Below are positions 3,519 through 11,735 of a stretch of 38,195 nucleotides of DNA, in pieces. The stretch covers positions 1 through 38,195 of the forward strand of contig JBJKQQ010000002.1 of the NCBI GenBank assembly GCA_046705325.1. Reading direction: 5' to 3'. The translations under genes and the position numbers were made by a program. The notes under the pieces are model-generated. The model did no database searches, was not told the origin of the DNA, and was given only the letters and a program-made list of their open reading frames with translations. Source of the stretch: Candidatus Pacearchaeota archaeon. Lineage in GTDB: Archaea > Nanobdellota > Nanobdellia > Pacearchaeales > GW2011-AR1. The number at the start of each line of letters is the position of its first letter. Positions within the stretch are counted from its first letter, which is position 1.

Positions 3519-3575
3519 AATTTACCGAGAAATATGTTCTTTAAAAAGCTATTTGTTTTGCGAAAATCTTTGCGC

Positions 3576-3773
3576 TTACATGAATTTTCTGTCGGTGCCG
3601 TCAAGCAAATCCGGCCTCATGTTCTCGAGGTTTCCCTTGTCTCTGGCTTCGTCTGTCGTCTTCTTTATCGCGTCGAACATTTTCTTTCCCCAGACCTTCT
3701 CGCCGCAGCGGTCGCAGATTTCCATGGACCTGTCGTCGAGCAAATCCGAATTGCAGTAAACGCATCGCCTCAT
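3576..3773 (-). CDS. Small zinc-ribbon protein, function unknown
   Basis: 65 aa with CxxC (CVYC) and CxxC (CDRC) pairs. A TATA-like CTTTAAAAAG lies about 35-40 nt upstream on the minus strand. Confidence 0.5.
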   Translation of the reverse strand: MRRCVYCNSDLLDDRSMEICDRCGEKVWGKKMFDAIKKTTDEARDKGNLENMRPDLLDGTDRKFM

Positions 3774-3826: not shown

Positions 3827-3835
3827 TTCGTGATA
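3827..3835. repeat. Left copy of the 9-bp target-site duplication TTCGTGATA
   Basis: Identical 9-mer in direct orientation at 9186-9194, immediately outside the terminal inverted repeats. Confidence 0.8.
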
Positions 3836-3852
3836 GGCTTTGTAAATTAAGT
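3836..3852. repeat. Left terminal inverted repeat (17 bp)
   Basis: GGCTTTGTAAATTAAGT, a perfect reverse complement of 9169-9185. Confidence 0.85.
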
Positions 3853-3884
3853 CCTGATTTGGGCTGACTTTTTTTACAGAAAAC

Positions 3885-5297
3885 TTAGTCTTTCCTTAAT
3901 ATTTCCTGCATAAAAATATCACTACTTTTAGCCCTTAGTTCTTCGGCTTCTTTTATCAGAGTTTTTGCCTTTTTATAATCTTGATTAACCAGACTTATTA
4001 TCTTTTCTTGTGTTGTGATATTAGGCAGGGGAATTAAGGTATCGTAAAGTTCAGGGTCTCCTATCCTATCTCTTGAAGAACCTCTAATTGAATATTCCCA
4101 CTGCCTTAGGACATAAGGCGTTCTCAAAATAATCCAGAGATATTCGGGCAAAATTTTTTCAGAAACTATTTTCACAGGAATTAACTCTCCACTCCCTAAA
4201 AATCCATCTGTTTTTTCATCAACAATTATTATTTTTCCTTTTTCAGGTTGTAATCTTGAAATCAGTAATTCACCTTTCCTGAATACAACTTTGTCGCTCC
4301 CCAAAACAGGAACTTCTTTGATATTCTTTACTTCTCCAAAGTTTTCGTCTATGTCATATAATTCAACAAGGTCATAAAAGGGCTTTGGGGAAATCTCTCC
4401 TTTTTTTTGTATCTCAATAAGCTTTTCAAGAACTTCATAATCTCTTTTTTCTACTATGCCTCTTATCTTTTCTCTAAAAGGGCTATTAAATAAAGCGTCT
4501 ATTCTATCCAAATCAAGAGCGGAAGAATAGGTATTGAATTTTGATTTTTCTGGTAACTCTTCAAGTCCTAAAATTTTTCCTATCTTTTCATCTAATGCAA
4601 AGATTGTTTTTTGGCTTTCTTTTTTCTTGCTTTCAATATCTCTCTCAAGTTCTTCTATCTTCCTTATCGTCTCTCGCTGTTTGCTCAAACTTATCTCGCT
4701 GTCTGAGACAGGCAAAGAAATTTCAATCTCTCTGCAATTCTTGAGACTTAATTTATACTGCAAAGAACCGACAGCTAATCTGCTCGTCTGCATTTTACAA
4801 AAAGAAGTATTAAGCATATGAACTAAAAATTGAGTATCAATCTCATCCGTCTTTTTTCTTATCCTCGCAACATTTTCACTGAAAGCATTTTCTTGAAGAG
4901 GGGAATTAACAATTCCAACCTCTCCAATAGTCCCGACAATCGTAATAACTAAATCATCCTTTTTTAGATTGTAATTTTTTATTTGGGTATAGATTTCAGG
5001 ATTTATCTTCTTGCAGTCCTCAAAATCTATTCCCCCATCTTTCACGTCAGTAGCACTGATGTAAGGAATAGTGGTAAGCTCTGATTGTATCACAACCAAA
5101 CCTTTAGGCAATCTCTTCCCCCCGCTTACTCTTGCAACTCTTTCATCGCCTAAAGGTAATAATTCATTATTTTTGTTAGATAACTTCTTCCTTATGTTTT
5201 GAATTTTCCTTAGAAGGTATGGGCTATTAAATAAAGCGTCCAATCTTTCTGTCTTGTCATCTGTCAAGTCAAGAGAATAAAAATTTTCTTCATTCAT
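3885..5297 (-). CDS. hsdS: Restriction-modification specificity subunit (HsdS-like, two target-recognition halves)
   Basis: 470 aa. Each half opens with a (L/I)DALFNSP(Y/F) conserved segment (about residues 19-26 and 265-272). The two divergent TRD-like halves are separated by a charged, apparently helical spacer (residues ~205-225, KQRETIRKIEELERDIESKKKE). It overlaps the upstream MTase gene by 8 nt. Confidence 0.8.
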   Translation of the reverse strand: MNEENFYSLDLTDDKTERLDALFNSPYLLRKIQNIRKKLSNKNNELLPLGDERVARVSGGKRLPKGLVVIQSELTTIPYISATDVKDGGIDFEDCKKINPEIYTQIKNYNLKKDDLVITIVGTIGEVGIVNSPLQENAFSENVARIRKKTDEIDTQFLVHMLNTSFCKMQTSRLAVGSLQYKLSLKNCREIEISLPVSDSEISLSKQRETIRKIEELERDIESKKKESQKTIFALDEKIGKILGLEELPEKSKFNTYSSALDLDRIDALFNSPFREKIRGIVEKRDYEVLEKLIEIQKKGEISPKPFYDLVELYDIDENFGEVKNIKEVPVLGSDKVVFRKGELLISRLQPEKGKIIIVDEKTDGFLGSGELIPVKIVSEKILPEYLWIILRTPYVLRQWEYSIRGSSRDRIGDPELYDTLIPLPNITTQEKIISLVNQDYKKAKTLIKEAEELRAKSSDIFMQEILRKD

Positions 5298-7200
5298 TTC
5301 CTTTCAAAAATTCTTCATATTTATCATAAATCTTGGGTAAGTCATTAAGCTCCATAGTTTCTTTTCCTGCGTCATTATGCCCGACATTCTCGCTTATAGC
5401 CATAAAGACTTTTCCTTGTGTGTCTTTTGCTGATTTCTTTATTAAGTAAAGTATAGATGTTTTAACTCCTGCGTCTGCATTAACGAAAGTATTTTTAGGC
5501 AGGGAAATTATTGCCTTGATGATAAAATGATTTCTCAACCAATCTCTAAATCTTTTATATTCGTCTCCTTGTCCGTCTGCATTAAGGACGCTCTCGTCAA
5601 TTATTGTTATCAATTTTCCGCCTTCTTTCAGCAAATCAAAATATCTTTCAATAAACATAACATTTGATTTCAGGGAACGTATCTTATCCGAGTTTTCTCT
5701 TCCTTGAGGATATGCTAAATCGTATTGAGGCAAAATTCTTTTGTCATAATTATCCGACATTTTATATTTCATGCTGAAAGGGGGATTAGTCATAACAATA
5801 TCAAACCTCTTCTTTTCAAATAATTCTTTCAGTTCTTCTAATTCTTCTTTCCTCTCATCATTTAACCCTTTTGGAATTTCTACCTCTTTATCCAAAGTAT
5901 CTGCTAAAAATATATGGCTTCCCCCGTCTCCATGAAGATACATATTCATGCGGGCAATAGGAATAATCTTGTCCTCGCTTTTGTCAATCCCGAAAAGGCA
6001 TTTCTCCTTTATTTTCTTTTTTAGAACATCTTGATTAGTCTTGCAGTTCTTAGCTTTGTTTATCAAATCGCTAAGGGCAAAAATTAGGAAACCACCCGAA
6101 CCACAGCAACCATCTAAAATTAATGGCGGTTCGTAATCTTCTTTTTCCTTGTTATATTTTATCTGCAAGTTAGCTAACTTAGTCATAAATTTAACAACAG
6201 GTCTCGGAGTGAAGAACATTCCCAACTCTTTCCCCCTTATCACCGCACTCAAAAAAGTTTCAAAAACACGCCCGTTAATGTCATCCTCAACGCTCTTTAA
6301 GTCAAGATTTTCTATAAGCTTGGTTATCTCAATCGTGGTTTCTGTTTGCAATCCCAATTCTTCATTATCTTCAAAAATTCTTTTCTTCTCTTTTCTCTGG
6401 ACTTTTTTGTTTAATTCATCTCTGTATTGTTTGAACAGAACGTCCATCGGGTTTGCTTGTCTCTTGCTTAATTCTCTAATCCTATCAACAGAAAAGAATA
6501 CTTCTTCTTTAGGGATTGGCTTGTCTTTTTCTATTAACTCGTGAATTTTAGCGTCCTCATTTATCTTAACAAATAATAATTTAGTAAATCTGTAAAATGC
6601 TTCTTGAGGAGAAAGATTGTGTTTTTTCCAAATCAGATAATGGCACTGCTGGAAAATTCCCTTAAGCTCATCTATATCTGGTTGTCTGAACTCAAAGATT
6701 TCATCCTCTTTGCCTTTTATGTTTTCTCTTAATGAATTGTAAGAATAAACCTCTTTCAGTTTTTCATATTTCTTATTTCCGTCAATAAAATCTGAAAAAC
6801 TTAATTCAAGCACTGGTTTGTTTTCATCAAGTCTTAACAGGCAGGTTTTTATTCCGTTGCTAACCAAACAATAAGTTATTGGATTTGTCCCGATATACCC
6901 TCTGTTTATTATCTCTGAATAATCTTGTGCTTCATGGAAAAAGTCTTGGACTTCTAAATCAGGATGTTTTGCCTCAACAACAGAAATGATTATCCGATTG
7001 CTTCTCAAAGCATAATCGGGTCTATGTTCTGTTTTCTTCGCTCCTTTTCCGATTAGATATTTTGGTATTAAATGCTTTGTCTGAATATTTGTGTCCTTGT
7101 ATCCTAAATCCTTTAACAACCTGTCAATAAAGAAATGTTCAACGTCGCTCTCGTTTCTCAATACACTTCTCTCGCAGAATTTGTTTTTTTCTGCAACCAT
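5290..7200 (-). CDS. Gamma-class N6-adenine DNA methyltransferase (HsdM-like) fused to an N-terminal HSDR_N/PD-(D/E)xK-like domain
   Basis: Motif I LDGCCGSGGFL precedes motif IV VMTNPPF. The N-terminal roughly 100 aa contain HRPDYAL...ISVVEAKHP (PD...ExK pattern). Confidence 0.8.
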   Translation of the reverse strand: MVAEKNKFCERSVLRNESDVEHFFIDRLLKDLGYKDTNIQTKHLIPKYLIGKGAKKTEHRPDYALRSNRIIISVVEAKHPDLEVQDFFHEAQDYSEIINRGYIGTNPITYCLVSNGIKTCLLRLDENKPVLELSFSDFIDGNKKYEKLKEVYSYNSLRENIKGKEDEIFEFRQPDIDELKGIFQQCHYLIWKKHNLSPQEAFYRFTKLLFVKINEDAKIHELIEKDKPIPKEEVFFSVDRIRELSKRQANPMDVLFKQYRDELNKKVQRKEKKRIFEDNEELGLQTETTIEITKLIENLDLKSVEDDINGRVFETFLSAVIRGKELGMFFTPRPVVKFMTKLANLQIKYNKEKEDYEPPLILDGCCGSGGFLIFALSDLINKAKNCKTNQDVLKKKIKEKCLFGIDKSEDKIIPIARMNMYLHGDGGSHIFLADTLDKEVEIPKGLNDERKEELEELKELFEKKRFDIVMTNPPFSMKYKMSDNYDKRILPQYDLAYPQGRENSDKIRSLKSNVMFIERYFDLLKEGGKLITIIDESVLNADGQGDEYKRFRDWLRNHFIIKAIISLPKNTFVNADAGVKTSILYLIKKSAKDTQGKVFMAISENVGHNDAGKETMELNDLPKIYDKYEEFLKGNE

Positions 7201-7233
7201 AGAGTTTAAATACGTTTCGCATATTTAAACTCT
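7201..7233. promoter_or_regulatory. Palindromic promoter/operator of the MTase-S operon
   Basis: AGAGTTTAAATA-9 nt-TATTTAAACTCT forms perfect 12-bp inverted arms, each containing TTTAAATA. The minus-strand TATA (7229-7222) is centred about 25 nt from the MTase ATG (7200). Confidence 0.6.
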
Positions 7234-7295
7234 TCGTTTTTAAGCTTTTCCCGATTAGTTACGTCGCAGGCGTAACAGAATTCCCATTTTCATTC

Positions 7296-8540
7296 TTACA
7301 ATTCTTTTGTCTGCTCCAAAATAAACTCGGATTTTATGCCGAGTTCGTTCACTTCTTGGATTACAACGCAGATGTTATGGCAGAGGACTTTAAGCAAAAG
7401 TTCATTATATTGGGCTGTTTTGTTCTTGCTCCTTATCGCTCCGCCGAACTTTGCCTTAATCATGTGGAAAGTCGTTTCTACATTACTGCGGGCGTGATAG
7501 TGTTCAAGAAATTCATCATGCTTGTATAGAAAATAGTGATACATTTTTCCCCACAGACCGAGCGTTCCTCTTTTTCCTGAAACATTTTTCTTGAACGGAA
7601 TGAAAGCAACTCCGCCGACTTCGTCAATTACCTTAAGATTTGCTCGGCTGTTGTATGCTTTATCTCCACTTTGTTCTTTTATTGTGAAGTTCTCGGCTGT
7701 CTTTCTTACGAGTTCGGCAAGTTGCGGGCTGTCGTTTTCAGTTCCTTCCGTAACCTTGACTGAAGTGATGATGTTTGTTTTTGTCCCTGCATTTATGTGG
7801 GCTTTGAGCCAGACTTTATACTTTCGCTCCTTTCCCCATTTGTAATCAAACCAACGAGCATATCTTGAAGTTGAAAATCCCGAACTGTCAACTGCGAAGC
7901 TCGTGTCTGTTTCTTTCAACGGCAACGAGCTTAATGTAATCAGGTTTTCAAGTATCGGCGTCATCTCTGGCTTGTTCATATAATTGCTGACGCTCATATA
8001 AGTCGGCTCGTTCTCAATCAATCCGAACTCTTTGGCTATCTTGACATCGGACATGAACCGCCTTAAAGAAAATGTTGAATAAACTTTGAGAGCCGAATTA
8101 AAAATCATTTCCGAGATTGGAAGATTAGGTCTTCCGAATTTATATTCTGGCTGTTCAACATTATCCGCCAAATCTTTTAACAACCTCATAAAGATTATTT
8201 TCTCATTTGTTTGCGACTTGTCGTATGCTTTCCAATCTTGCTTATAGCTAACCTTTACGCCTTTGGTCTCTATGATTTTTCCTTCTTCGTCTATCTGCCT
8301 TTTTATGTAAAGCTCAACAGCGATTATATGCTTGCATTTCTTATGTCGCAGTTCGCAATCAGGACACGAGCAGACAGGATTTTCATTCCTGAAAATTACT
8401 TTGTATGCTTTGAACGAGGTTTGAGAGCCGACAACCCAAAAGTTATTCTGCTTTCTTATCCTTCCACGCTGAAAGATTAGCTTTCCTTTCTGCTCTCGGT
8501 CAAGATTTCTCAAATCCACCGATTGTATCTTTGTATTCAT
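7296..8540 (-). CDS. DDE transposase (IS4/IS5 superfamily) with an N-terminal SWIM zinc finger
   Basis: SWIM signature CSCPDCELRHKKCKH. Candidate DDE residues lie in FAVDSSGF, SGDKAYNS and NVETTF. An exact Y-x2-R-x3-E-x6-K signature is present (YHARSNVETTFHMIK). Confidence 0.85.
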   Translation of the reverse strand: MNTKIQSVDLRNLDREQKGKLIFQRGRIRKQNNFWVVGSQTSFKAYKVIFRNENPVCSCPDCELRHKKCKHIIAVELYIKRQIDEEGKIIETKGVKVSYKQDWKAYDKSQTNEKIIFMRLLKDLADNVEQPEYKFGRPNLPISEMIFNSALKVYSTFSLRRFMSDVKIAKEFGLIENEPTYMSVSNYMNKPEMTPILENLITLSSLPLKETDTSFAVDSSGFSTSRYARWFDYKWGKERKYKVWLKAHINAGTKTNIITSVKVTEGTENDSPQLAELVRKTAENFTIKEQSGDKAYNSRANLKVIDEVGGVAFIPFKKNVSGKRGTLGLWGKMYHYFLYKHDEFLEHYHARSNVETTFHMIKAKFGGAIRSKNKTAQYNELLLKVLCHNICVVIQEVNELGIKSEFILEQTKEL

Positions 8541-8547
8541 AATATAT

Positions 8548-8633
8548 TTAGATACCTAACCTTTATATACTTTTCGGTATCTAAAAGTATAAGTTGCAGA
8601 ATAGAAATCTTTATAAATAATAGGTATCTAAAA
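8548..8633. promoter_or_regulatory. Divergent promoter region with three copies of the 9-mer GGTATCTAA and two TATA boxes
   Basis: TTAGATACC at 8548-8556 (inverted), and GGTATCTAAAA at 8576-8586 and 8623-8633. TTTATATA (8562-8569) lies about 25 nt from the transposase ATG. TTTATAAATA (8610-8619) lies about 25 nt from the AbrB-like ATG. Confidence 0.55.
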
Positions 8634-8638
8634 AGGAC

Positions 8639-8800
8639 ATGAAATTGCAGAGCCAAATTTCAAGAAAGGTCGGTGAAACTGAATATCTTAAATCTTGGGT
8701 TGTTATACCTAATAAAATTCTTGAACAGCTTAAATGGAAATCGGGTCAGGATTTGGACGGAGAAGTTAAAGATGGCAAGTTGATTGTTAAGAAAAAATGA
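8639..8800 (+). CDS. AbrB/SpoVT-type (MazE-like) small DNA-binding protein, 53 aa, absent from the supplied ORF track
   Basis: Manual translation: MKLQSQISRKVGETEYLKSWVVIPNKILEQLKWKSGQDLDGEVKDGKLIVKKK. It shows the swapped-hairpin pattern v.IPk.i...L.wk.Gd.l...v.dgklivkk. Its stop overlaps the next ATG (ATGA). Confidence 0.65.
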   Translation: MKLQSQISRKVGETEYLKSWVVIPNKILEQLKWKSGQDLDGEVKDGKLIVKKK

Positions 8801-9138
8801 ACAAAAAAATTTATGAAAAATTAAAAGATGTTGCAAGAAGAAAAGACACAATTTCTTATTCACAATTAGCAAGTGATTGTAATTTCCCTTATTCTTCTAT
8901 TGATGAAAGAAATAAGTTTCATGAATTATTGGTGGAGATTTCAAGATTTGAAGTAGCAAATGGAAAGCCAATGTTATCTGTATTAGTTCATCATAAAGGA
9001 GATGTTGAAAGAAAATGTGGAAAAGGATTTTTTGAATTAGCAGATGAACTTAATCAGAGAAAAGAAAATGAAAAAGGAAATGATAAAAAAATGCAATATA
9101 GGATTATTGGAGAAGTTTGGAAAGAATATAACAAGTAA
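8797..9138 (+). CDS. Hypothetical 113-aa protein translationally coupled to the AbrB-like gene; possibly a winged-helix fold
   Basis: The ORF has a 4-nt ATGA overlap with the upstream gene. TISYSQLA...LLVEISRFEVANGKPMLSVLVHHKG is loosely reminiscent of MGMT/ATL-type wHTH but lacks a catalytic Cys motif. T-rich tracts follow the stop. Confidence 0.5.
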   Translation: MNKKIYEKLKDVARRKDTISYSQLASDCNFPYSSIDERNKFHELLVEISRFEVANGKPMLSVLVHHKGDVERKCGKGFFELADELNQRKENEKGNDKKMQYRIIGEVWKEYNK

Positions 9139-9168
9139 TTTTTTTCAGAGACTTTTTTTACAAAAGCC

Positions 9169-9185
9169 ACTTAATTTACAAAGCC
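9169..9185. repeat. Right terminal inverted repeat (17 bp)
   Basis: ACTTAATTTACAAAGCC, the reverse complement of 3836-3852. Confidence 0.85.
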
Positions 9186-9194
9186 TTCGTGATA
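9186..9194. repeat. Right copy of the 9-bp target-site duplication TTCGTGATA
   Basis: Identical to 3827-3835, in direct orientation. Confidence 0.8.
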
Positions 9195-9229: not shown

Positions 9230-9427
9230 ATGATAATTCCGGTAAGATGTTTTTCATGCGGCAAGCCGCTCGGCCATTTGTGGGAAGAATACAAGCGCCG
9301 CGTCGCGGAAGGCGAAAAGTCCAGCAAGGTCCTCGACGAGCTGGGCATAGAAAGATTCTGCTGCAGGTCTGTGTTCCTCGGGCAAACGGATTTGATTGAG
9401 CTGGTCGGCAAATTCAAGAAAGCTTAA
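9230..9427 (+). CDS. rpoN: RNA polymerase subunit N (Rpo10)
   Basis: MIIPVRCFSCGKPLG..WEEY......G......LDELGIERFCCR. TATA TTTAAAAA (9201-9208) lies about 25 nt upstream of the ATG. Confidence 0.9.
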   Translation: MIIPVRCFSCGKPLGHLWEEYKRRVAEGEKSSKVLDELGIERFCCRSVFLGQTDLIELVGKFKKA

Positions 9428-9689
9428 GCTTGCTGATTTTATATCTGGATACATAATCGCAATTTCCGCATTCAATTGATTTTATTCCTTTGTTAATTTT
9501 GATTTTTTCTTTTCCTGAATAAGGCATCAAACACTTTTTGCAAAACGATTTTCTTTTTTCGCGAAGCCTGATGTTTGAATTCGCAGCCAGCTTCTTAATT
9601 TTCTTGACTTCTTTCGGAGTTTTGTTTTTTATATCCACAAAAAATTCTTCAATTTGTTTCGCGGCTTCAGACTTTGAAAGTTTTTTCAT
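9414..9689 (-). CDS. rnp4: RNase P protein component 4 (Rpp21/Rpr2 family)
   Basis: 91 aa with a basic helical N-terminus followed by the zinc ribbon FCKKC...ECGNC. It converges on rpoN with a 14-nt overlap. Confidence 0.7.
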   Translation of the reverse strand: MKKLSKSEAAKQIEEFFVDIKNKTPKEVKKIKKLAANSNIRLREKRKSFCKKCLMPYSGKEKIKINKGIKSIECGNCDYVSRYKISKLKLS

Positions 9690-10078
9690 TCAATTAATAC
9701 CTCCAATTCAGGATAGTTCTCCTTGCATCTCTCTGCCAGTAGCCTTCTATGGCATTTCTCTGAGGTTTTTTCAATACAGAGCAATCTTATATCTTTTCCT
9801 GCTGCTGCAAGGGTAAGATTCTCCACTTCTTCTCGTATGGAATCAAGATAATCAAAGTATCTTTTTTCAAACTCTTCCCAAGGAAGATATCTTTTATAAT
9901 AATCTCCAATAAGTTTTAATGGCGGCGCAAAAACATTCCAATGTTCATCGTAAGAAATGCCTTCGGTTATTCTCCTGTCCAGAGTTGTTCCGTCATTCAG
10001 GGTGTGCCTCGACATAATAGAAACCCTCAGAGTATCTTGTTCATTGTAATAAGTCAGAATGCAACCTGTTTTTAGCAT
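9686..10078 (-). CDS. DUF488 family protein
   Basis: HW..FAPPLKL...Y......WEEFEKRYFDYL.......L......K.IRLLCIEK..EKCHRRLLAE is the typical DUF488 pattern. Confidence 0.65.
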   Translation of the reverse strand: MLKTGCILTYYNEQDTLRVSIMSRHTLNDGTTLDRRITEGISYDEHWNVFAPPLKLIGDYYKRYLPWEEFEKRYFDYLDSIREEVENLTLAAAGKDIRLLCIEKTSEKCHRRLLAERCKENYPELEVLIE

Positions 10079-10298
10079 GGGAAATTTAAGAATTCAGATT
10101 TTATAAAATTAAAGAAAATGATAGAAGACAGTTCAATGAGTTCGCGCCTTTTGGGAGCTATAGTCATCGACGCAAAGGGCTTAGCTTCCGGGTTCGGAAA
10201 GAGACCGGGCGTTTCCCCTTTGCTTTGACCGTCTTCAAAAATTACTCAATATCTGGATTTATAAAACTTTTTATAGGGTCAATTTCTTGATATTTCAC

Positions 10299-10382
10299 GC
10301 GGGGGTGCCGGAGTGGTCAAACGGGCAAGATTAAGGCTCTTGTGGGTTAGTCCCTACACAGGTTCGAATCCTGTCTCCCGCA
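10299..10382 (+). tRNA. Class-II tRNA-Leu. The anticodon loop TTAAGGC reads AAG in the canonical register.
   Basis: The cloverleaf folds by hand. Acceptor GCGGGGG/CTCCCGC, anticodon stem CAAGA/TCTTG, long variable arm GGG..CCC, T arm ACAGG-TTCGAAT-CCTGT, discriminator A. TATA-like sequence lies about 29 nt upstream. Confidence 0.8.
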
Positions 10383-10566: not shown

Positions 10567-11607
10567 ATGAAAATATTGTTGTCTAGAGAATCAAAGAAAA
10601 AACTACTTAAGTCCTTGCTTGAAAAAAATTTTTGCAGTTCTCTAAAGGAACTTTCAGAGATTCTAAAAATATCCAAGGGAACTTTAAGCGATTGGTTTTA
10701 TTCTGGAAAGAGATATTTGCCTGAAGAGATCATCCCTATACGCTTGAAGAGCAGGTTGCAAATTTTGGATCTCCAAAAAGATAATTGGGGGAAGATTAAG
10801 GGAGGAAAAGAAACTTACAAAATAATCTCCAAAAAATACGGGAAATCTGAAATCAAAAGAAGGCAGTCTCGGGGAGGAAAAGTTTCTGGAGAAAATCGGG
10901 GGAGCCTCGACAAACCTCTAAATCTTGATTTATCAAACAAATATCTTTTGGAATTCTACGGCGCGCTTCTCGGCGATGGCTGGATGGGAATATATAATGC
11001 TAAGAAAAAGCCCATTTATCTCATTGGTATTGCAGGCCATCTGACCCGGGATAAGGATTATCTTCTTTATCTGAGAGAAATAGTAAAAAGGTTTTTTGAC
11101 CGGAAAGGTTATCTGAAAGAAAGACCCCGCTACAATTGTTTAGAATTGCATTGTTATCATAAAAAACTCCTCTCCTTTTTTAATCAAAAATTAAACTTTC
11201 CTGTTGGCAAAAAAATTAATTTAAAGATCAACGATGAAATAGTCGAGTCTGGTTTTGATAAAATGAAATATGTGATAAGAGGAATATTTGATACTGATGG
11301 CTCTTTTTATTTAGACAAAGATCCTGCCGGAATGCCTTATCCTTGCATTTCCTTAACAATGAAATCTCCTCTGCTTTTGGAACAGGTTAGTAAGGTCTTG
11401 TTGAACGAGGGATTCAAAGTGAGTTTCAGGAAAGAGAAATATATGCTAACTCTGAAAGGAAAAAAACAAGTTTCTAAATGGTTAAAATCGATAGGTTTTT
11501 CAAACGAAAAACACCTAAAAAAGATAAGGTCCTGTAACTCAGCCTGGATAGAGTGCCACCCCCCTAAGGTGGAAGTCGTAGGTTCAAATCCTATCAGGGC
11601 CGCTTGA
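10567..11607 (+). CDS. LAGLIDADG homing endonuclease (double-motif) with an N-terminal HTH-like region. The ORF tail reads through tRNA 11528-11602.
   Basis: LAGLIDADG motifs LLEFYGALLGDGWM and VIRGIFDTDGSFY. TATATAAAA (10538-10546) lies about 25 nt upstream of the ATG. There is no in-frame stop before 11605-11607. Confidence 0.8.
   Translation: MKILLSRESKKKLLKSLLEKNFCSSLKELSEILKISKGTLSDWFYSGKRYLPEEIIPIRLKSRLQILDLQKDNWGKIKGGKETYKIISKKYGKSEIKRRQSRGGKVSGENRGSLDKPLNLDLSNKYLLEFYGALLGDGWMGIYNAKKKPIYLIGIAGHLTRDKDYLLYLREIVKRFFDRKGYLKERPRYNCLELHCYHKKLLSFFNQKLNFPVGKKINLKINDEIVESGFDKMKYVIRGIFDTDGSFYLDKDPAGMPYPCISLTMKSPLLLEQVSKVLLNEGFKVSFRKEKYMLTLKGKKQVSKWLKSIGFSNEKHLKKIRSCNSAWIECHPPKVEVVGSNPIRAA
11528..11602 (+). 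tRNA. tRNA, probably Arg(CCU). The anticodon loop is CCCCTAA, with an unusual C at position 33.
   Basis: A 75-nt cloverleaf. Acceptor GGTCCTG/CAGGGCC, D arm ACTC..GAGT, anticodon stem CCACC/GGTGG, T arm GTAGG-TTCAAAT-CCTAT. Confidence 0.7.
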
Positions 11608-11664: not shown

Positions 11665-11735
11665 GCGCCGGTGGTTTAATGGTAGAATCTCTGCCTTCCA
11701 AGCAGATGACCCGGGTCCGATTCCCGGCTGGCGCA
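11665..11735 (+). tRNA. tRNA-Gly(UCC)
   Basis: Acceptor GCGCCGG/CTGGCGC, anticodon stem TCTGC/GCAGA with loop CTTCCAA, T arm CCGGG-TCCGATT-CCCGG. TTTAAAATA at 11634-11642 lies about 28 nt upstream. Confidence 0.85.

Follow-up and report, generated by a model that had tools for sequence, protein, structure and literature searches.

An archaeal transposon with restriction-modification cargo, a small AbrB-fold protein as its proposed repressor, and a passenger gene of an un-modelled family

Introduction

Restriction-modification (R-M) genes can be mobile as transposon-like units. In bacteria, inverted repeats mark the borders of such units, with duplications of 8 bp (Furuta, Abe and Kobayashi 2010, PMC2853133), and one of them combines a type IIG R-M gene with a homologue of a type I S gene and a hypothetical gene (PMC2853133); no archaeal case survived that survey, whose units were by design without a linked transposase (PMC2853133). 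Insertion sequences with passenger genes are in turn known as tIS (PMC7986276). Here we describe a transposon of this general kind in a 38,195-nt stretch of archaeal DNA (the whole stretch is called the window below, its copy of the element WIN, and loci from elsewhere L001, L007, L029 and so on). We concentrate on two small overlapping genes at the right end of the element, one for a protein of 53 amino acids (aa) with the AbrB/SpoVT fold, the other for a 113-aa protein. As in R-M units and tIS, imperfect inverted repeats at the termini and a short duplication of the target enclose the R-M genes here. The window element differs from the R-M units in its DDE transposase with a SWIM finger, its 9-bp duplication and its slot for a regulator, and its family differs in having several independent copies with different cargo.

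In regulatory terms, the closest described systems are TnpR of Tn3, with its res site, and the C proteins of R-M systems, which like the regulator proposed here are small autoregulators with repeated operators in the promoter of a mobile element. With TnpR, entry of Tn3 into a new host leads to a burst of expression that is then repressed (PMC7157771). The fold in the window is AbrB (ribbon-helix-helix in sibling elements) as opposed to a serine recombinase, with no resolvase function, and it also differs from the Xre-type helix-turn-helix of the C proteins. The R-M genes of the window moreover lie on the opposite strand behind the transposase gene, and regulation by the AbrB protein is putative; in related loci, AbrB homologues do resemble C proteins in directly preceding genes for methyltransferases, methyltransferase-Mrr_cat proteins or type IIG fusions. 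In terms of fold, the nearest proteins are C68 of pSSVx (PDB 3o27), C56 of pSSVi (PDB 7xi6) and the N-terminal domains of AbrB and MazE, with a shared build of ~53-68 aa that comprises the swapped-hairpin domain alone. C68 and C56, which are among the top structural matches, are likewise encoded on archaeal mobile elements. Sequence similarity to all of these is low, and the window gene differs from them in its association with transposases and with one particular palindromic operator; it differs from MazE and VapB in lacking a toxin-binding tail or a conserved toxin partner.

Transposons with passengers, small repressors at divergent promoters, mobile R-M units and winged-helix accessories in defence loci are thus all known kinds of system. 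What is new is a delimited archaeal transposon family with R-M cargo, an interchangeable AbrB/ribbon-helix-helix slot with a defined operator, and the unnamed family of the 113-aa protein. We suggest that the 53-aa protein is probably the repressor of the transposon, and that the 113-aa protein is a passenger, a DNA-recognition or sensor module for defence and not a toxin.

Results and discussion

A complete transposon with two small genes at its right end

The two open reading frames (ORFs) have in common the ATGA at 8797-8800, a 4-nt overlap. Both are real genes under purifying selection, with non-synonymous differences (pN) of 0.08-0.22 against synonymous differences (pS) of 0.47-0.83 when compared to their relatives, the synonymous sites being near saturation. 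Relatives of the 53-aa protein form 29 clusters at 57-89% identity, and the gene is found at 51 loci in species-representative genomes, nearly all of them from DPANN archaea (Woese-, Pace-, Nano- and Aenigmarchaeota). For the 113-aa protein there are 18 close relatives, and 335 clusters at an expectation value (E) of <=1e-3 in an exhaustive search; by a pattern method, no close relatives were detected in species-representative genomes or viral contigs.

An earlier note on this DNA had placed the overlapping pair on a transposon, near transposase and R-M genes. This is borne out, and the element can now be delimited exactly: it is a complete transposon of 5,350 bp (3836-9185), with the two small genes at its right end (Table 1). 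The left end was located with the reverse complement of the right end as query, which has a single further copy in the window; a match of this quality (17/19) compares with 0.02 matches expected by chance in the window. Since the inverted ends match and TTCGTGATA is present on both flanks, the element spans the interval between the two duplications, which coincides with a low-GC island at ~3.5-9.5 kb. A first guess for the left end, at ~7243 just past the transposase gene, had come from alignment with L029 and was given up, as there is only a weak 7-bp match at this position. The sequence concerned, AGCTTTTCCCGATTAGTT (~7243-7262), does align with the left terminus of L029's short element, and may represent the vestige of an inner end dating from the capture of the R-M genes. 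The R-M pair itself has a BcgI-like type IIB/IIG layout, and its 636-aa subunit is homologous to the R-M gene of L012.

Table 1. Coordinates of the transposon parts in the window, with the evidence for each.
Feature	Position	Strand	Evidence
Left 9-bp target-site duplication	3827..3835	.	TTCGTGATA, identical to 9186-9194
Left terminal inverted repeat	3836..3854	+	GGCTTTGTAAATTAAGTCC; 17/19 vs reverse complement of 9167-9185
Specificity (S) subunit, 470 aa, passenger	3885..5297	-	Pfam Methylase_S, two stretches, E=4e-17
Fused nuclease-methyltransferase, 636 aa, passenger	5290..7200	-	Pfam HSDR_N E=7e-7, N6_Mtase E=8e-39, Eco57I E=1e-15
DDE transposase, 414 aa, N-terminal SWIM zinc finger	7296..8540	-	Pfam DDE_Tnp_1 E=9e-22, SWIM E=1e-5
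Putative bidirectional promoter/operator region	8541..8638	.	Sequence, inverted repeat, alignment with five related loci
53-aa AbrB/SpoVT-fold protein, proposed transposon repressor	8639..8800	+	Pfam/NCBIfam matches, model, homologues; ATG 8639, TGA 8798-8800 (..SWVVIPNKILEQLKWKSGQDLDGEVKDGKLIVKKK)
113-aa passenger gene, un-modelled family	8797..9138	+	Relatives, model, family contexts; overlaps AbrB stop; ATG 8797, TAA 9136-9138
Two T7 runs, likely archaeal terminator of the AbrB operon	9139-9145, 9153-9159	+	Sequence
Right terminal inverted repeat	9167..9185	-	Reverse complement GGCTTTGTAAATTAAGTGG
Right 9-bp target-site duplication	9186..9194	.	TTCGTGATA

The element belongs to a mobile family whose cargo varies. 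Scanning metagenomes with the transposon end sequence gave at least 120 matches, most of them probably due to chance; among the matches listed, 15 end matches are adjoined by a transposase of the WIN type. Four complete siblings with the same ends have perfect 9-bp duplications of their own: L193 (4,191 bp, GTTTTAAAC), L180 (8,353 bp, AAGCACTTC), L149 (4,674 bp, TCAAATCGG) and L007 (6,308 bp, ATTAAAACC). Further distinct right flanks are found in L008/9/11 and in L010, while the flanks of WIN, L029 and L032 diverge immediately past ...ACAAAGCC / ...CCACTTAATTTACAAAGCC. The WIN transposase is 84-85% identical to those of L029 (85% over the full protein), L123 and L193, 73% identical to that of L032, of which only a fragment is available, and 66% identical to that of L007. 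Sibling cargo consists mostly of type IIG/IIB R-M genes of 814-1,244 aa. The family has hallmarks of a DDE transposon, namely inverted repeats, a target duplication, a DDE transposase, and independent copies with their own duplications; the Pfam family and the 9-bp duplication, as the two features that bear on its class, suggest an IS4-like element. In L007, the right end of another copy (57-101, ACTTATTAAACAAAGCC) abuts the duplication ATTAAAACC of the complete element, so that two elements lie end to end here, which may point to insertion beside an existing end.

The two genes do not form a conserved pair

The AbrB/113-aa pair is not a conserved module. Genes were called in the AbrB loci, which were then searched with a profile for each family: in all 50 AbrB loci other than the window, the 113-aa protein has no relative. 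Conversely, AbrB is absent from 23 of the 23 loci of the 113-aa family, in any reading frame and even at E<=10. The short copies L029 and L032 make the same point within the transposon family. They align with the window through the AbrB stop (window 7303-8801 for L029, 8242-8801 for L032) and then continue straight into the homologue of 9137-9185, so that the segment with the T7 runs directly follows the AbrB stop codon; these copies retain AbrB and are without exactly the 113-aa ORF.

What stands upstream of the 113-aa homologues varies widely. In L001 it is an HNH nuclease gene, again with a 4-nt overlap, in L004 an unrelated 65-aa ORF, in L003 a membrane protein and in L014 a MarR-like winged-helix protein; elsewhere it is a large R-M fusion (L007-9) or a divergent R-M operon (L010 and L012). 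The gene downstream of AbrB is similarly hypervariable, with 37 clusters in 45 loci, often starting at -11 to +9 nt from the AbrB stop. These downstream genes are rich in DNA methyltransferases, of the N6_N4_Mtase type with or without RAMA or Mrr_cat, the MT-A70 type and the Dam type, and also include type IIG fusions.

The 113-aa gene is nonetheless a recurrent cargo of the transposon family, although most copies are without it: in L007-L011, the gene for a 119-aa homologue stands as the final one ahead of a related right inverted repeat, at no fewer than three (>=3) different insertion sites. Because no Shine-Dalgarno-like sequence can be read in the window ahead of ATG 8797, termination-reinitiation at the ATGA would be a reasonable route for its translation.

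A small side observation concerns L193, where a 44-aa ribbon-helix-helix regulator and, overlapping it downstream, a 51-aa ORF stand just ahead of the right inverted repeat (8768-9054). The layout mirrors that of AbrB and the 113-aa gene; the proteins are unrelated.

The 53-aa protein and its proposed operator

The assignment of the 53-aa protein to the AbrB/SpoVT fold, as made in the earlier note, is upheld by structure comparison, alongside sequence-profile matches that stay below their cut-offs. Residues 21-53 of the 53 align with positions 10-43 of the 48 of the Pfam family PF04014 (MazE_antitoxin, AbrB/SpoVT; E=9e-5), TIGR01439 is matched with E=7e-4, under its cut-off, and 10 of 29 close homologues have a precomputed PF04014 match. 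The AlphaFold model, built from 29 homologues (pLDDT 81.8), has strands at residues 2-11, 14-22, 39-44 and 47-52 and a helix at 25-31; this topology of a β-hairpin, a short helix and a second β-hairpin is that of AbrB, MazE and SpoVT domains. Using Foldseek against the PDB, the top matches were 2mrn, 1mvf (MazE), 7xi6 (pSSVi C56), 3o27 (pSSVx C68), 1yfb (AbrB-N) and 2w1t (SpoVT), with probabilities of 0.6-0.96 and, for this short query of 53 residues, E of only 0.1-0.4.

The AbrB and transposase genes are divergent, separated by a 98-nt spacer between ATG 8540 (-) and ATG 8639. TATA boxes are found 22-29 nt from each ATG, at 8562-8569 for the transposase gene (minus strand) and at 8610-8619 for the AbrB gene, a spacing that would fit leaderless transcripts. 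On both sides, the palindrome TAGRTAYCTA is located between the TATA box and the ATG (8549-8558 and 8621-8630), and a third, central copy with one mismatch is found at 8575-8584. The spacer as a whole is mirror-symmetric, forming an imperfect 40-nt inverted repeat with arms at 8536-8575 and 8604-8643, and alignment with five related loci indicates that it is kept even where the transposase differs.

The motif is strongly concentrated upstream of AbrB genes in general. In 44 non-redundant AbrB loci, the 130-nt stretches ahead of the gene contain 69 occurrences of AGRTAYCT in total, corresponding to 12.2 per kb vs 0.10 per kb in the remaining 361 kb, an enrichment of ~120-fold. Its position is also fixed: in most of the 44 loci it is found at -16 to -19 from the ATG, and again near -65 and at -89 to -103. 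Because the site near -17 is present in loci that have no transposase (L019, L052, L057 and L058), it belongs to the AbrB gene. A palindromic motif at fixed positions lends indirect support to the idea that the AbrB protein dimerises and binds DNA.

An interchangeable slot for the proposed regulator

A divergent transposase gene lies 93-134 nt away in ~20 of the 44 AbrB loci. The transposases linked to AbrB are of two catalytic families, IS6/IS240-like and the DDE_Tnp_1 type of the window, and some members of each share the N-terminal SWIM finger. We observe that an N-terminal SWIM segment of ~65 aa is 43-50% identical between DDE_Tnp_1- and IS6/IS240-type transposases (window, L024, L070, L029), and both of these SWIM-sharing types also come with the same AbrB cassette and spacer. 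This suggests that a module of regulator, promoter and N-terminal domain has been recombined between insertion sequence families. We had also considered whether the AbrB cassette is itself part of an IS6-type element; the right-end motif of the WIN type is absent from the IS6-type loci, whose boundaries were not worked out, and the idea was dropped.

In the sibling transposons L123, L193, L171 and L007, the same slot is occupied by an unrelated ribbon-helix-helix protein of 44-46 aa. The ends of these ribbon-helix-helix siblings are the same, and the transposase is 84% identical in L123 and L193. The spacer of L123, the only one inspected, carries different repeats, e.g. TTACTACT. Other AbrB-like proteins are found in the siblings L149, L112 and L084. 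Since non-homologous proteins replace each other in a fixed slot, a regulatory function is indicated, as opposed to specific binding of a partner protein.

Similar mini-regulators are also seen next to R-M genes. In L010, a gene for a 57-aa AbrB-like protein with a weak match to DUF2080 ("putative transposon-encoded protein"; 3548-3721, -) lies directly upstream of the R-M gene, and in L008 a gene for a 50-aa ribbon-helix-helix protein (1073-1225, +) does the same; both layouts hint that mini-regulators are generally used as R-M controllers in these archaea. In L012, a 45-aa ribbon-helix-helix gene (1181-1318, +) is found beyond the 3' end of the S gene, on the opposite strand.

The family of the 113-aa protein

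The earlier note could name no motif in the 113-aa protein beyond a vague wHTH-like stretch and considered it a possible new family. This is a fair description: nothing was found in Pfam, NCBIfam, PADLOC or PDB sequences, and the best match in PHROGs had E=0.31. Pfam searches run member by member on 90 relatives found no family common to more than four (>4) of them, and those matches were noise; NCBIfam searches on 10 diverse members gave weak matches to ogt in one only. None of the four libraries Pfam, NCBIfam, PHROGs and PADLOC has a model for the family. In the source annotations, all members are called "hypothetical protein", and tblastn against annotated collections returned two weak plasmid matches, hypothetical or unannotated, and no phage sequence. 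The stretch singled out in the earlier note, TISYSQLA...PMLSVLV, turns out to be the signature of the family, for which the consensus is TItY-x-eLA ... DRN ... LGEIS-x-x-E ... RPMLSavVV-x-K ... PG-x-GFF-x-LA ... W.

Members are found in bacteria and archaea and are mostly stand-alone proteins of 107-125 aa, but the domain is also found in tandem, with two or three copies per protein (P0028, P0037 and P0053), and in fusions. It stands N-terminal to HNH in P0110, and is fused to NERD and a UvrD-type helicase in P0079 and to NOV_C in P0113 and P0115. Between the HNH domain of P0110 and the HNH gene that precedes the homologue in L001 no homology is detectable, and the comparison of a split with a fused arrangement is for this reason an analogy only.

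In an informal count over 12 distinct contexts of the family, with a reach of ~5 kb, nine have a gene for an R-M enzyme or DNA methyltransferase nearby (WIN, L003, L004, L007, L010, L012, L077, L081 and L082), L082 being a Rhizobium plasmid R-M operon that contains the homologue. Two other contexts adjoin a nuclease, HNH in L001 and a Shedu-type SduA_C protein in L079.

The AlphaFold model of the 113-aa protein (pLDDT 95.8, pTM 0.87) is all-helical with a short wing. The top fold matches in the PDB are O6-alkylguanine alkyltransferases (SNAP-tag, human AGT, and the M. tuberculosis and Sulfurisphaera tokodaii enzymes), which make up ~10 of the top 25 Foldseek matches, none of them significant (E>3, TM 0.25-0.41). 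By sequence, the best PDB match of the family profile is likewise an alkyltransferase, the Thermococcus MGMT 1mgt, with E=0.25. P0028 alone matches PF01035 (DNA_binding_1; E=0.003, 17.8 bits vs a cut-off of 27) and TIGR00589 (ogt; E=6e-4); no member tested reaches the threshold of an alkyltransferase model, and the window protein is without any match to them. Comparing the family profile with the MGMT C-domain by hhalign gave probabilities of 78.5% with an alignment of 3 PDB-verified sequences and 87% with a larger version that adds 5 sequences outside the PDB-verified set (P=2e-5 to 4e-6).

What the family would have in common with the alkyltransferase C-domain and with Atl1 is a helix followed by a "v-I-T-Y-x-e-L-A" start and, as in Atl, the lack of a catalytic cysteine. 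The differences are substantial: the PCHR motif of alkyltransferases and the PWHR motif of Atl are both absent, the consensus at this place being RPMLSavVV, with no Cys, Trp-His or His-Arg, and the 113-aa family has a longer recognition helix and an extra C-terminal helix. A tyrosine (Y21) and an arginine (R38) are invariant in the family; we presume, with low confidence in the mapping, that they are located at the positions of Tyr114 and Arg128 of human MGMT. We regard the kinship to the winged helix of alkyltransferases and Atl as a lead, short of established membership. A catalytically dead branch of alkyltransferase-like base-flipping domains, which senses a modified or damaged base and directs nucleases or R-M enzymes to it, is a tentative and rather doubtful identity for the family.

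A likeness of a different sort, by analogy of arrangement, is to the sensors of type IV restriction (SRA, EVE/PUA and the DpnI-type winged helix; PMC11037411, PMC7897488), the common logic being that a small N-terminal DNA-reading domain is fused to nucleases of the HNH or PD-(D/E)XK type or encoded beside them. The predicted 113-aa fold is distinct from these, with no DpnI or SRA structure among its fold matches, and we rejected the DpnI-type winged-helix sensor of 6mA (PMC11037411) as the identity of the family for this reason. Most genes with DpnI-type winged-helix fusions are not next to methyltransferases (PMC11037411), whereas many members of the 113-aa family adjoin them.

A model for repression and for the passenger

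Based on these findings, we propose that the AbrB protein, as a dimer or tetramer, would bind TAGRTAYCTA at both divergent, probably leaderless, units. Binding would shut the leftward transposase promoter, possibly together with read-through into the R-M genes, and would also shut the rightward operon of AbrB itself in an autorepressive manner. On arrival in a naive cell, transposase and cargo might then be expressed in a burst before being repressed. The 113-aa gene would have been inserted, exact to the ORF, between the AbrB stop codon and the terminator and right end of the element; because of this exact placement, it would ride on the AbrB promoter and share the terminator, with the ATGA overlap allowing termination-reinitiation. 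Its product is probably a small DNA-binding protein that works with nucleases or R-M enzymes, possibly by reading a modified base.

The earlier note had also offered a controller role for the pair, directed at the transposase and R-M genes. Of the two alternatives in that note, this is the better one. The first half of it gains from the palindromic operator, which is fixed at both divergent TATA boxes; for the R-M genes to be controlled as well, transcripts would have to read through beyond 7296. We thus believe that the most direct target of control is the transposase together with the AbrB operon, rather than the R-M genes.

Several observations weigh against this model. The PF04014 score of 22.8 bits is just below the gathering threshold of 24.7, and the profile of the AbrB family found nothing at E<=1 among PDB sequences. 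Instead of the AbrB protein, the transposase or a host factor could be what binds the palindrome. Just upstream of the R-M gene start, at 7201-7233, there is a perfect 12-nt palindrome with TATA-like boxes, AGAGTTTAAATA(9)TATTTAAACTCT, so that the R-M genes have a TATA-bearing palindrome of their own and may escape control by AbrB. No empty target site came up when metagenomes were searched with the reconstructed junction. L029 and L032 could lack the 113-aa ORF through loss, or the window could have acquired it; its recurrence by the right end in two lineages could mean a role in the biology of the element itself and not inert cargo. Finally, the likeness to alkyltransferases is weak (Foldseek E>3, TM 0.35-0.41 for these structures), and hhalign aligns only the first 28-30 columns.

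Of the other explanations, one has the 113-aa protein controlling the adjacent type IIB/IIG R-M genes in the manner of a C protein, as part of a two-regulator operon with AbrB. The small, helical and winged-helix-like fold predicted by the model would suit this, as would the close homologues that are divergent from, or directly follow, N6_Mtase/Eco57I-type R-M genes (L007-L010 and L012) and the Rhizobium homologue within its R-M operon. However, fusions to HNH, NERD-helicase and NOV_C, along with tandem triplication, are typical of targeting or sensor domains and not of repressors, and the homologues in L001 and L079 have no methyltransferase nearby; we thus consider this explanation unlikely.

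Alternatively, the 113-aa protein might serve the mobile element, either as an accessory of transposition that binds the ends or as an anti-restriction or anti-defence factor that shields incoming DNA. In WIN and in L007-L011, across several insertion sites, no other gene separates it from the right inverted repeat, and full-length relatives by predicted structure are found in jumbo phages: in BFVD, a set of predicted viral structures, uncharacterised proteins of PaBG (S5VMJ6), the Dickeya phage JA13 (A0A384ZWU5) and Noxifer (A0A1Y0T084) match with TM 0.76-0.81 and E of 4e-5 to 4e-4. Against this, most copies of the transposon family do without the gene (L029, L032, L123, L193, L149 and L171), and most members of the 113-aa family are chromosomal and lie outside such elements (L001, L003, L004, L012, L014, L079 and L081); the nuclease fusions, too, favour a role in defence over one in anti-defence. 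Such a service to the element appears decidedly improbable to us.

The remaining explanation, raised by the earlier note as an addiction module, is a type II toxin-antitoxin system that stabilises the transposon, with AbrB as antitoxin and autorepressor and the 113-aa protein as a new toxin; although the antitoxin-first order, the 4-nt overlap and the upstream palindromic operator make up the classic type II layout, MazE and VapB antitoxins share the AbrB/SpoVT fold, the arrangement in L193 is alike, and toxin-antitoxin pairs, including AbrB-PIN, are integral to Tn3-family transposons (PMC7157771), we have dropped it as very improbable on grounds of co-occurrence, domain content and the short element copies, given that the pairing is found in the window only, that AbrB homologues as similar as 57-89% stand upstream of 37 unrelated gene clusters, mostly methyltransferases, that the 53-aa protein ends with its AbrB domain (homologues are of 52-59 aa) and has no tail for a toxin, that the 113-aa family usually occurs alone, without a small upstream partner, with N-terminal nuclease fusions resembling a targeting domain, and matches no toxin family (PIN, MazF or RelE-like) in its predicted all-helical winged-helix-like fold, and that L029 and L032 keep AbrB without it.

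Returning to the repressor-and-passenger model, its implications are of two kinds. Active archaeal transposons of 4-8 kb, with 9-bp duplications and complete type IIB/IIG R-M systems, suggest one route for the exchange of defence genes among small DPANN genomes, and if the model is right, expression from such R-M-carrying transposons would be set by interchangeable AbrB or ribbon-helix-helix repressors. The regulatory module would be a compact one, consisting of a 53-aa protein, a 10-bp palindrome and two mirror-image, presumably leaderless promoters. Most deserving of follow-up is the 113-aa family, as a candidate for family definition and for biochemistry. Its fusions and neighbourhoods point to a DNA-reading role in defence; on the doubtful reading as a dead alkyltransferase-like branch, it would constitute a new class of sensor in modification-dependent defence that transposons with R-M cargo spread among DPANN archaea, with HNH, Shedu-type, NERD-helicase or PD-(D/E)XK nucleases or type IIG/IIB R-M enzymes as its partners.

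Genes to the right of the transposon

The host genome is of the DPANN archaeal type, and the window is recognisably archaeal from an RpoN gene (9230-9427), a 5S rRNA gene and three tRNA genes. The 5S rRNA gene stands alone next to a DUF488 gene (9686-10078) and a small zinc-ribbon ORF (9414-9689), at 10123-10236 (-), ~0.9 kb from the right end of the transposon. Further on, a 346-aa ORF with LAGLIDADG-like motifs (LLGDGW..., GIFDTDGS) at 10567-11607 (+) lies between tRNA-Leu (10299-10382) and tRNA-Gly (11665-11735), and its 3' end overlaps tRNA-Arg(CCT) at 11528-11603; it is possibly a homing endonuclease tied to the tRNA cluster.

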